In this document: positions 6,397 to 7,540 of the stretch, piece after piece | How the letters are laid out: each line of letters opens with the position of its first letter | Position numbering within the stretch: position 1 is the stretch's first letter | Source: an uncultured bacterium | GTDB lineage: Bacteria > Electryoneota > Electryoneia > Electryoneales > Electryoneaceae | Direction: 5' to 3' | Length of the DNA: 64,000 bases | Assembly (NCBI GenBank): GCA_964552465.1 | Contig: CAZKGR010000003.1 | Location: 42,726-106,725, forward strand | Position numbers and translations under genes: made by a program | Notes under the pieces: generated by a model | Told to the model about the DNA's origin: nothing | The model's input: only the letters and a program-made list of their open reading frames with translations | The model's database searches: none

Positions 6397-6601
6397 GCCC
6401 GGGTTCGACCTGTCCGCCGAAGCTTCAGCGTAGGTGGATGAACCCGGGGAAGACTTTGACGCCATCCTGAACGTTTTTGTAAGGATCTCTCCTTACGATA
6501 TGCCCCTGTTGGGAGTGACCAACAGGGTTTTGTTGTTTTGTTGGATGGGATTGCTGTGTAGGTTGATCACGACATGAAACCCGAGGCTGAAGCCCCGGGC
6601 C
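6397..6601. repeat. composite repeat unit, copy A
   Basis: Contains the CCCGGGTTCG..GAACCCGGGG palindrome, a CATCCTGAACG...AAGGATCTCTCC motif and the ATGCCCCTGTTGG-N6-CCAACAGGGTTTTGTTG terminator hairpin. Roughly 70-75% identical to 7334-7540. Confidence 0.6.
6503..6540 (+). terminator. rho-independent terminator (conserved hairpin family) after the methyltransferase gene
   Basis: Stem CCCCTGTTGG / CCAACAGGG, loop GAGTGA, followed by TTTTGTTGTTTTG. Confidence 0.6.
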
Positions 6602-6701
6602 ACCCGCCGGATTCCAGGTATTGATTTTGCCGCCATCCTTAAGGATCAGAGTTGATCATGACCAGAATACGGACTATATTATGGTCAACATGGAGATCGC
6701 G

Positions 6702-6980
6702 ATGAAGCTAACCAACATCAAACCAGTGAGTTACCTGAAAGCGCACGCGTCTGAAATCCTGCGCAACCTGCCGGAGGCGGGTGGACCCATGGTTATTACG
6801 CAAAATGGGGAAGCGAAGGCGGTGCTTCAGGATGTGTCGACGTATGAACAGACCCAGGAAACCTTGGCATTGCTGAAGATTCTGGCGCTCGGGGATCGTC
6901 AGATTGATGAGGGGAAGACTGTCTCCATGGACGAAGCGTTCGAACAGATCCGTGCCAAACGGCGGAATCCTGAGGGGTAA
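6702..6980 (+). CDS. type II antitoxin, Phd/YefM family
   Basis: About 93 aa (MKLTNIKPVSYLKAHASEILRNLPEAGGPMVITQNGEAKAVLQ...) with the Phd/YefM fold pattern. GGAGA RBS. Stop lies 3 nt before the toxin start. Confidence 0.75.
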   Translation: MKLTNIKPVSYLKAHASEILRNLPEAGGPMVITQNGEAKAVLQDVSTYEQTQETLALLKILALGDRQIDEGKTVSMDEAFEQIRAKRRNPEG

Positions 6981-6983
6981 ACG

Positions 6984-7319
6984 TTGGAGCGGAACCCAAC
7001 TTACACCATCCACTTGACCGTCGACGCGCTCGCCGACCTCGACGACATTGACGATTATCTCTGCACGCATGTATCGGTGGATACTGCGGACTATGTGCTT
7101 GATCAGCTCAGAGCTGCGATGACTTCGTTGACATCATTCCCGGAGCGGAATCCGGTTCCAGACGAATTGCAGCTGCTTGGTGTCACCTCCTACCGACAGA
7201 CACACTTCAAGCCATATCGGATCATCTACAAGATTGTGGGCCATGAGGTGGTCGTCGAACTGATCGCCGACGGTCGGCGGAATATGCAGGAGCTGCTGGC
7301 AAAGCGGTTGCTGGGATGA
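6984..7319 (+). CDS. type II toxin, RelE/ParE family
   Basis: 111 aa. C-terminal region KPYRIIYKIVGHEVVVELIADGRRN is typical of ParE/RelE. Tightly coupled to the upstream antitoxin. Confidence 0.75.
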   Translation: MERNPTYTIHLTVDALADLDDIDDYLCTHVSVDTADYVLDQLRAAMTSLTSFPERNPVPDELQLLGVTSYRQTHFKPYRIIYKIVGHEVVVELIADGRRNMQELLAKRLLG

Positions 7320-7333
7320 CGGGATTCTGTGTT

Positions 7334-7540
7334 GCCCGGGTTCGTTGAACCCGGGGAAGCTTGGGATGTCATCCTGAGCGCAGCGAAGAGTATATCCTGA
7401 GCGAGGGTGTCATCCTGAACGTAGTGAAGGATCTCTCTTTTGACATGAGGTTGATGTTCCGTATGCCCCTGTCGGGAGTGCCCAACAGGACGTTGCTGTT
7501 TTGCTGGGCGGAATTGTTGTGTAATTTGATCCTGACTTCG
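7334..7540. repeat. composite repeat unit, copy B
   Basis: GCCCGGGTTCGTTGAACCCGGGG palindrome, tandem GTCATCCTGAGCG/GTCATCCTGAACG...GAAGGATCTCTC motifs and the terminator hairpin. Homologous to 6397-6601. Confidence 0.6.
7466..7506 (+). terminator. rho-independent terminator (same family) after parE
   Basis: CCCCTGTCGGG / CCCAACAGG hairpin followed by a T-rich tract GTTGCTGTTTTG. Confidence 0.5.

Follow-up and report, generated by a model that had tools for sequence, protein, structure and literature searches.

The mosaic intergenic repeats known as NIMEs, together with Correia elements and 'minimal mobile elements', often include terminators and flank variable accessory genes situated between conserved ones. 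NIME-type repeats are thought to serve as substrates for recombination-based gene replacement. Chromosomal integrons typically carry toxin-antitoxin (TA) cassettes, each with a promoter of its own, and the Vibrio superintegron carries phd-parE cassettes. REP/BIME elements and REPIN doublets, in E. coli and other Proteobacteria, consist of short imperfect palindromes joined to further short motifs whose order is fixed. Here we describe a locus of an uncultured marine Calditrichota-like bacterium, from a phylum that is barely studied and known almost only from metagenomes, in which a Phd/ParE pair is bracketed by mosaic hairpin repeats. The window, that is, the whole stretch of DNA analysed, is 64,000 nucleotides long; with its flanks, about 80 kb of the genome was covered. 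Our overall reading is that the TA pair is an accessory block in a variable region and not a demonstrated mobile unit; on either side of it lie REP/BIME-like repeats, which were probably once substrates for recombination.

The original prediction of a two-gene Phd/ParE module was borne out by domain searches. The layout is that of type II Phd/YefM-ParE (ParDE-like) systems, with two small adjacent genes on the same strand, 3 nt apart and antitoxin first:

6652-6680, plus strand: candidate TA promoter TTGATC-17-TATATT, from a promoter scan
6659-6664 / 6682-6687, plus strand: candidate operator, an inverted repeat TGACCA / TGGTCA that spans the -10 box
6702..6980 (most likely extent), plus strand: Phd/YefM-family antitoxin, 92 aa, with a GGAG Shine-Dalgarno sequence; PF02604, E=8e-17
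6984..7319, plus strand: ParE-family toxin, 111 aa, TTG start; PF05016, E=1e-14

Phd scores 61 bits to PF02604 (cut-off 29.8) and ParE 54.8 bits to PF05016 (cut-off 23). By its domains, this operon between the repeat units is a genuine type II TA pair, with predicted TA activity. An inverted repeat overlapping the candidate promoter is also what would be expected for antitoxin autoregulation. Earlier start codons of phd are also used by gene callers. ParE is a rare toxin variant, its best non-self relatives among 5.8 billion proteins being only 54-56% identical, and the TA proteins are otherwise without anything unusual. The nearest relative of the pair is found in the genome we call L032, which has two Phd-ParE cassettes in tandem. 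Residues 1-64 of Phd are about 94% identical to the second Phd of L032, with a diverged C-terminus, while ParE is 50% identical to the second ParE; the promoter/operator stretch (6652..6687) is conserved upstream of that second Phd. Compared with this relative the pair is mosaic, with a conserved antitoxin N-terminus and a diverged toxin-binding part and toxin.

The pair is enclosed by two units, A and B, each of which follows a gene in the same direction:

5750..6388, plus strand: class I SAM-dependent methyltransferase (MTase), Pfam Methyltransf_25/11/31
6389..6573, plus strand: unit A, with module 1 at 6398-6449 and a degenerate module 2 at 6462-6489
6504-6527 (stem), with a T-run to about 6545, plus strand: module 3 of unit A, an intrinsic terminator, followed by a conserved spacer to 6573
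7326..7540, plus strand: unit B, with the module 1 palindrome at 7335-7356 and no tail hairpin
7368-7394 (degenerate 3' arm), 7393-7408 (fragment) and 7409-7435 (intact), plus strand: module 2 of unit B
7462-7510, plus strand: module 3 of unit B, with a damaged stem and broken T-run, followed by the spacer to 7540

Module 1 is a lineage-specific CCCGGGTTCG palindrome, module 2 a 27-nt hairpin repeat GTCATCCTGARCG..GAAGGATCTC, and module 3 an intrinsic terminator, after which comes the spacer. Units A and B are homologous, diverged copies of about 190-215 bp with an identical order of modules (MAFFT). Local alignment of 6389-6610 with 7326-7545 gave a score of 92, against a mean of 17.7 (sd 2.5, maximum 28) for 300 shuffles, and a repeat search returned 6499-6573 / 7462-7536 (80% over 75 nt) plus common palindrome and CATCCTGA pieces. 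Identity is 78% over module 3 and the spacer, and nhmmer recovered unit A at E=4e-65. The prediction that homologous units with the same ordered modules bracket the TA pair was thus confirmed. The copies of about 205 bp had been placed at 6397-6601 and 7334-7540; the repeat is real, but its extents had to be corrected to those listed above. Unit A begins at the base right after the MTase stop codon (6389) and unit B 6 nt past the ParE stop, and the homology ceases at 6573 in A and at 7540 in B. Copy A does not reach 6601, as its last 30 nt are part of a separate tail hairpin; nothing in B corresponds to bases 6574-6605.

The two units differ in several respects. The palindrome loop of unit A holds a 32-nt insert, which we considered as an inverted tail hairpin and rejected, the match being too weak (only 78% over 18 nt). 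Unit B has about three tandem or partial CATCCTGA modules and an insert of 15-26 nt. A terminator scan was positive for module 3 of unit A (hairpin of -17.4 kcal/mol) and negative for unit B, whose minimum-free-energy fold does not contain the canonical hairpin. The folds of both units, which are strings of local hairpins, are more stable than those of shuffled sequences (z of -2.6 and -3.3). Their ends read TCTATGTAGCC... at the start and ...GTTGATCACGAC / ...TTTGATCCTGAC at the finish. An inverted-repeat search of 6300-8100 returned no terminal inverted repeats at these ends, no duplicated flanks indicative of target-site duplication were seen around the units, and no RYYYAAC/GTTRRRY core sites could be read at the ends. 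No gene in the window or its flanks (about 80 kb) encodes an integrase, transposase, Y1/RAYT (PF01797) or any other recombinase domain. We therefore rejected a MITE or transposon identity for the units, which have neither terminal inverted repeats nor target-site duplications, and likewise an integron cassette identity, given the lack of an integrase in about 80 kb and of core sites.

Parts of the units recur elsewhere in the window: single modules are found at four other intergenic sites, free of TA genes. In total, the window contains three copies of module 1, about six copies or fragments of module 2 and three copies of module 3, all intergenic. The sites include:

4399..4423, plus strand: lone module 1, GCCCGGGTTCG-CC-GAACCCGGGG, 5 nt past the YebC stop codon
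22238..22403, plus strand: incomplete third member of the family, between convergent genes and without TA genes (nhmmer E=6e-4; also matched by a regular expression)
55368..55467, arms on both strands: module 2 inverted doublet in a TA-free convergent intergenic region

The lone module 1, which a pattern search also finds, is 84% identical to the copy in unit B and folds as RNA at -17.9 kcal/mol (z -2.8). In the third family member, 22238-22305 comprises the final part of module 2 plus the terminator of module 3, the hairpin in the 22238-22403 element having -15.1 kcal/mol, and 22375-22403 forms a hairpin resembling the tail, in which the inner stem differs but is compensated. The arms of the doublet are 55368-55411 (plus, with a hairpin inserted in the loop) and 55441-55467 (minus, an ATTCT/AGAAT variant). 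Full units are limited to A and B, adjacent to each other, in about 80 kb of the genome, and none of the relatives examined yielded a complete unit of three modules. Searches with the terminator pattern CCCCTGTYGGN{4,8}CCAACAGGNNNTTG in genome and metagenome contig collections, from which the source organism is absent, returned 11 and 12 scattered matches at chance level, respectively, none of them unit-like. A counterpart comes from another species, L036, where module 3, spacer and tail (7244-7357, nhmmer E=1.8e-15) stand directly 3' of a different ParE; over module 3 and the spacer the L036 sequence is 70% identical to unit A and 66% to unit B.

These properties place the repeats close to the REP/BIME type. 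The module repeats of the window are short imperfect palindromes in several copies and both orientations, including the inverted doublet, and, as in REP/BIME elements, they are extragenic and sit mostly just past stop codons; in unit A one hairpin is even nested in the loop of another. There are also differences: in sequence the modules bear no relation to described REPs, a RAYT gene (PF01797) was not seen in about 80 kb, and units A and B additionally carry an intrinsic terminator. From the NIMEs of Neisseria they differ in phylum and sequence; only one flanked cassette is present here, and there is no evidence at this locus of natural transformation or uptake sequences. The repeats appear to be ordinary intergenic elements of the REP/BIME type and not a novel class of mobile element. 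It had been conceded that the modules might turn out to be ubiquitous intergenic REP/terminator sequences. They are indeed of a generic type, but they do not flank most genes: the window has 21 hairpin-plus-T-run sites, of which the module 3 terminator family accounts for only 3.

The hairpin that follows unit A belongs to a family of its own, with two members near the TA pair:

6574..6609, minus strand: tail hairpin GGTGG-CCCGGGGC-TTCA-GCCTCGGG-TTTC, a terminator-type element
7962..7995, plus strand: tail-family hairpin in the opposite orientation, from the inverted-repeat search

The first has no counterpart in unit B and is 97% identical to L032 8590-8624; it goes with the TA block and lies outside the A/B repeat. 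Its minus strand has a predicted stability of -24.0 kcal/mol (z -3.3), its plus strand one of -12.0. The second shows the reverse (-20.8 kcal/mol and z -5.0 on the plus strand versus -3.6 on the minus strand). Together they form an inverted repeat (82% over 34 nt), and 6576-6609 / 7962-7995 is the sole long inverted pair in 6300-8100. The tail family has three intergenic copies in two orientations in the window. Tail-type hairpins (GGTGG-CCCG..CGGG-TTTC) with covarying stems also occur after unrelated genes in the relatives L030, L031 and L032; behind the Pirin gene, where the sites are orthologous, those of L031 and L032 point in opposite directions.

Comparison of the syntenic locus in relatives showed that the TA pair is not conserved there: Phd-ParE follows the MTase in none of the five relatives (YebC 85-89% identical). 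Synteny upstream of YebC is conserved in all five, and the genes downstream differ in each. In L031 an MTase orthologue comes directly after YebC, and then only a plain terminator and no TA genes. By contrast, all 21 contigs carrying the YebC of the source organism have the TA pair at this position in the same arrangement, and no TA-less allele with a single unit, i.e., an empty site, was found among them. Homologues of the MTase that are 65-79% identical are spread over many phyla. Three candidates for an empty or TA-less site were dismissed: the contig L037 ends in Illumina adapter and poly-A; the 3' flank of the 79% identical MTase of L039 scores 22 against unit A, with shuffles at 17.4±2.6; and the MTase homologue of L040 lies in an unrelated context. 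The TA block proper (6571-7321) is homologous to L032 9472-10191, which is a different locus. There it is not flanked by units of the A/B type, and the same tail hairpin lies ahead of each of the two tandem cassettes. Judged from these genome comparisons, the TA pair is accessory at this position, in a variable, rearrangement-prone spot downstream of yebC. Since the A/B homology ends at 6573, the TA block starts at 6571 and unit B begins 6 nt past the ParE stop, the block fills the gap between the tandem units to within a few bases.

The DNA beyond unit B had been described as an AT-rich, gene-less segment next to a GC-rich citF. The citF gene is as described (PF04223; GC 0.58-0.65), and the segment is AT-rich (GC 0.35-0.39 at 7500-8100), but it is not gene-less:

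7543..7905, plus strand: 5'-truncated pseudogene, the C-terminal ~120 codons of a lipoprotein-like protein of about 221 aa, function unknown

A phmmer search against 1.84 billion representatives gave 160 matches, the best of which is 60% identical and pairs residues 1-112 of the truncated gene with residues 110-221 of the protein; BLASTP gave E=3e-54. The truncated gene starts at about 7543, right where unit B ends (7540), and its N-terminal half is nowhere in the window. A tblastn indication that the homology runs into unit B (7444-7540) was discarded, as this piece alone scored -0.6 bits against the family HMM, within the range of 200 shuffles. The hairpin at 7962-7995 is likely the terminator of the truncated gene.

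The explanation we favour, with a probability of roughly 0.55, is that A and B are mosaic intergenic repeats and that the TA block arrived by recombination at a rearrangement hotspot. The two units would belong to a lineage-specific mosaic, built of short hairpin repeats between genes and of the REP/BIME or NIME type, and would have diverged from each other. Each lies at the 3' end of a gene and ends in a putative intrinsic terminator; unit A may close the methyltransferase transcript, and unit B stands after ParE. The TA block itself would run from a terminator-type hairpin through an autoregulated promoter to phd and parE, and could have reached the hotspot downstream of yebC without a transposase of its own. 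That the unit is directly duplicated, with a copy on each side, may most simply be a trace of recombination, homologous or illegitimate, among members of the family. A [TA block + unit] segment may, for example, have integrated into a unit already there, or an unequal exchange may have occurred. A later deletion would then have removed the sequence past unit B and the first ~100 codons of the lipoprotein-like gene. Several points count against this reading. A freely dispersed family would rarely, by chance, have its only two full units in about 80 kb next to each other, so a specific link to the TA block or a local duplication is needed; neither an empty site nor, in the relatives examined, a complete unit was found; and with an identity of 78% over about 200 bp the units are poor substrates for RecA-dependent exchange today. 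Regarding the proposed repeat-mediated mobile cassette, the TA pair is accessory here, but nothing points to the units being a mobile element or having delivered the cassette: no recombinase is encoded in about 80 kb, the ends are not of transposon type, the TA block of L032 lacks the units, and modules are present at TA-free sites.

That the bracketing is incidental seems unlikely to us. The units would then be MITE-like independent insertions behind two neighbouring genes, or a local tandem duplication by slippage or unequal crossing-over, and this would fit their position 0-6 nt from a stop codon (the lone palindrome behind yebC is placed likewise), the occurrence of modules elsewhere without TA genes, and the decayed appearance of unit B. 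Against it, the units lack terminal inverted repeats and target-site duplications, and the TA block fills the interval between them almost exactly. Moreover, two adjacent full copies and no other in about 80 kb are improbable for independent insertions. We consider it very unlikely that selection has kept the units as cis-acting elements of the 3' UTR or as RNA elements, such as mRNA-stabilising hairpins with a terminator, or a small RNA, and that their similarity stems from a function needed by both operons and not from a common history of recombination. The better-than-shuffled folding of both units, the canonical terminator in unit A and the compensatory stem changes of module 2 across many genomes agree with such a role. 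However, the terminator of unit B is damaged, the copies differ by indels and tandem partial modules, and no Rfam family was matched, either in the whole window at gathering threshold (4227 covariance models) or at permissive thresholds in 4300-8200, where only chance-level matches appeared (E>=0.8). An identity of 78-80% across unpaired spacers, with the same module order, argues for common descent of A and B and not for convergence.

We attach little credence to an integron-like alternative, in which the unit and/or the tail would be attC-like sites, used by a recombinase encoded elsewhere to shuffle accessory cassettes, those with TA genes among them. It would explain both the tandem TA array of L032, with its repeated tail hairpin, and the unit-TA-unit arrangement found here. 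A TA cassette with its own candidate promoter between direct structured repeats of about 100-200 nt does recall integrons and their usual cargo, the sharp boundaries of the TA block coincide with the unit ends, and in L036 module 3, spacer and tail directly follow ParE. Yet no IntI is encoded in the window and its flanks, and the unit ends have no R''/R' core sites (RYYYAAC/GTTRRRY), which even a CALIN-type array, lacking an integrase, would need. The units are strings of separate local hairpins that include a working-type terminator, rather than the single long, bulged imperfect palindrome of an attC site; tail hairpins also follow ordinary genes without cassettes, in both orientations; and the source locus has one cassette and no multi-cassette array. 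That unit and tail hairpins are the sites of an undescribed cassette-shuffling system of Calditrichota-like bacteria, integrase-independent or distantly encoded, strikes us as far-fetched. Such a system would move TA and other accessory cassettes from one 3'-of-gene site to another, the L032 array, the ParE-unit-tail order of L036 and the unit-TA-unit order here being three snapshots of the process.

On the favoured reading, recombination at a hotspot, the locus illustrates how a TA block, with mosaic hairpin repeats on both sides, sits at a rearrangement hotspot of the chromosome. Should the repeats turn out to serve as substrates for recombination, they would contribute to an explanation of the turnover of accessory genes beside conserved housekeeping blocks in this lineage. 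A wider lead is the 27-nt GTCATCCTGAGCG..GAAGGATC hairpin of module 2, which is very widespread, shows compensatory changes and is absent from Rfam. A literature search with its DNA strings and spurious translations gave primer coincidences or nothing, and we found no match there. In IMG/VR, where module 1 and the tail hairpin had no match, module 2 is present on at least 80 unrelated contigs with GC from 43 to 70% and unrelated flanks. It thus crosses phylum-level GC ranges, in contrast to classical REPs, which are species-specific, and is a generic, very widespread (pan-bacterial) repeat. Its stems show six compensated variants in 23 copies, and the IMG/VR copies are frequently arranged as inverted doublets, like the one at 55368-55467.

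Pfam confirmed the Phd/ParE pair, assigning the antitoxin to Phd/YefM and the toxin to ParE; the pair lies between two homologous repeat units, whose pairwise alignment scored 92, compared to 17.7±2.5 for shuffles (maximum 28). The original prediction had extended the upstream copy to 6601. The repeat itself was upheld, but its last stretch was not, since unit B lacks any equivalent of bases 6574-6605 (ATGAAACCCGAGGCTGAAGCCCCGGGCCACCC); these belong to a separate hairpin, the tail.

Repeat elements and neighbouring genes (window coordinates unless a relative is named)
4399-4423: module 1 alone, after yebC
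4500-5627 (-): hypothetical gene (375 aa), flanked by yebC and the methyltransferase gene
6389-6573: unit A, from alignment with unit B
6574-6609 (-): tail hairpin, from its fold; GGTGG-stem-loop-stem-TTTC on the minus strand
7326-7540: unit B, from alignment with unit A
7543-7905 (+): 5'-truncated gene, from protein family matches (open frame 7537-7905)
7962-7995 (+): inverted tail copy, 82% complementary over 34 nt; fold -20.8 kcal/mol
22238-22305: module 3 alone, after a purine-nucleoside-phosphorylase-family gene
22375-22403: tail-like hairpin with a different, compensated inner stem
55368-55467: module 2 inverted doublet, TA-free intergenic site
Tail family in relatives: L030 12804-12831; L031 16946-16973, 20029-20058; L032 3155-3182, 8599-8623, 9481-9505

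The order of modules is common to both units. Module 1, a GC-rich palindrome (CCCGGGTTCG..GAACCCGGGG; fold -18 kcal/mol, z about -3 to -4), has in unit A a 32-nt insert in its loop (6408-6439) and a hairpin lengthened by CCGCC/GGTGG. The insert loosely resembles an inverted tail hairpin, a likeness that hints that small hairpin elements may become nested by insertion. Module 2 (GTCATCCTGARCG.AGYGAAGGATCTC) occurs as one degenerate copy in unit A, and as one intact (7409-7435) and two partial copies in unit B. An intrinsic terminator forms module 3; in unit A it has a 9-bp stem (6504-6527) followed by TTTTGTTGTTTTG (-17.4 kcal/mol), and about 45 nt of conserved spacer lie on its 3' side. In unit B it has decayed, with a C·A mismatch in the stem and a broken T-run, and a fold other than the canonical hairpin now has the minimum free energy. 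Over module 3 and spacer the units are 78% identical.

The TA pair is not conserved in this position, as none of the five relatives with YebC 85-89% identical has Phd-ParE after the methyltransferase. These five genomes retain the block upstream (NTP-transferase, cNMP-binding regulator, MeaB, methylmalonyl-CoA mutase, PAS kinase, B12-binding protein and YebC), while the gene directly 3' of yebC is different in all six genomes with YebC of at least 85% identity (window 4395-4500, and the relatives L030-L032, L035 and L036). The varying 3' neighbour, together with the conserved upstream synteny, indicates a rearrangement hotspot downstream of yebC. In L031 the gene immediately 3' of yebC is the methyltransferase orthologue, with a plain terminator at its end (CCCCAGTTGG..CAACTGGGG). 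L032 carries two tandem Phd-ParE pairs (8824-10190), about 8 kb away, after Pirin. BLASTN matched window 6571-6887 to L032 9472-9780 (81%) and window 7252-7320 to L032 10123-10191 (84%), which delimits a homologous TA block that begins with the tail hairpin, includes the promoter region and ends at the ParE stop codon. This homology begins at most 3 nt from the end of the A/B homology. Compared to the second L032 pair, the upstream DNA and Phd N-terminus are 81-94% identical (about 94% for the first 64 residues of Phd), and the Phd C-terminus and ParE about 50%; by sequence comparison, the window pair is a mosaic relative to it. ParE is rare, with otherwise at most 56% identity to anything in the protein database.

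No A/B-type unit surrounds the L032 pairs, where simple CCCGG hairpins and the tail are the only such elements. The relatives L036 and L038 carry, immediately 3' of a different ParE, a short palindrome, module 3, spacer and tail in succession (nhmmer E=1.8e-15), which argues that the right half of the unit plus the tail is an old composite in the genus. The L036 copy of module 3 and spacer is 70% identical to unit A and 66% to unit B; the two units are closer to one another than to it. That a MITE-like unit or a local duplication brackets the TA pair incidentally is a possibility to which we give about one chance in five.

The segment downstream of unit B had been described as AT-rich and gene-less; its open frame at 7537-7905 in fact matches the C-terminal half of a protein family of about 215-230 aa with a lipoprotein signal peptide (160 matches); the family has no match in Pfam. 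In the best match (60% identical), query residues 1-112 correspond to protein residues 110-221, and BLASTP gave E=3e-54. The ~100 codons of the N-terminal part are absent from the window. An apparent extension of the homology into unit B was not significant and was rejected. The truncation point, about 7540, coincides exactly with the 3' end of unit B, which indicates that this boundary is where a deletion or recombination event stopped; downstream of unit A, and likewise of the L036 copy, the tail holds this position. The truncated gene is likely terminated by the inverted tail (7962-7995).

The tail folds well only on the minus strand (6574-6605, -24.0 kcal/mol, z -3.3, vs -12.0 on the plus strand), where it is a predicted terminator-type element. 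Three related genomes have tail-type hairpins with different, compensated inner stems 3' of unrelated genes, and L031 and L032 carry them in opposite orientations at the orthologous site 3' of the Pirin gene; the tail thus constitutes a separate small repeat family. The family pattern, GGTGG-CCCG..CGGG-TTTC, is strand-specific and terminator-type, with covarying inner stems.

The modules also occur singly, at four TA-free intergenic sites of the window. They could have proved to be ubiquitous intergenic sequences; we found them dispersed instead, the module 3 family accounting for only 3 of the window's 21 hairpin-plus-T-run sites. Module 2 is much more widespread: exact-pattern matching in IMG/VR gave at least 80 loci from many metagenomes with unrelated flanks; those listed range in GC from 43 to 70% and include many inverted doublets with 20-45 nt between the two copies. 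Relaxed matches gave six compensated stems in 23 copies (e.g. ATTCT/AGAAT, 13 times), which fits a conserved hairpin in which a 5-bp stem is followed by tandem G·A pairs, a 2-bp stem and a triloop. The 27-nt pattern of module 2 reads GTCATCCTGARCG.AGYGAAGGATC(TC); it has no match in Rfam, and a literature search by sequence found nothing. That the units are selected cis-acting RNA elements is improbable in our estimation. No IMG/VR match was obtained for module 1 or the tail, which thus appear lineage-specific.

We favor, at a probability of roughly 0.55, the interpretation that the units are mosaic 3'-end elements of REP/BIME-like type, with the TA block an accessory acquisition in the hotspot. 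The unit-TA-unit order would have been left by recombination among members of the family, for example if a segment of TA block plus unit integrated into a resident unit, with deletion after the recombination step. Unit A would terminate the methyltransferase transcript, unit B might be a weak terminator only, and the tail, facing the TA operon, could stop antisense transcripts. A candidate TA promoter, TTGATC-17-TATATT (6652-6680), overlapped by TGACCA..TGGTCA and conserved in L032, may be autoregulated. An integron-like cassette system is very unlikely; the genes of the window and flanks are free of integrase, transposase and Y1/RAYT domains, and those of the window are housekeeping in content. 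Of the proposed repeat-mediated mobile cassette, the accessory TA pair between two unit copies, to within a few bases, stands; the repeats are ordinary intergenic mosaic elements without demonstrated mobility.

Marine metagenome contigs of about 213 kb match the window (JGI 3300007511 Ga0105000_1000037; ENA SUTE22-1 scaffold_28). Local gene order is identical in all 21 contigs encoding its exact YebC. No empty, TA-less site was found; a candidate, L037 6705-6864, was rejected as an assembly artefact, the public contig ending in Illumina adapter, then poly-A. YebC is 74% identical to that of a "Calditrichaeota bacterium", its nearest named relative, and 85-89% to its closest relatives, and the SprA and Por_Secre_tail genes are consistent with the FCB group. 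The CitF homologue (8142-9722, minus strand; GC 0.58-0.65 vs 0.515 for the window) adjoins an MFS transporter, has no citD/citE partners nearby and is not present downstream of yebC in relatives. In one assembly (L006 2077-3204) the 375-aa hypothetical gene is called as two ORFs of 140 and 224 aa, suggesting a frameshift variant or an assembly error. Two different relatives share a further intergenic hairpin, CCCGGCAAT-RGGG-ATTGCCGGG-CTA (L039 820-850 and L032 10320-10341), which suggests additional CCCGG-stem repeat families in the lineage.
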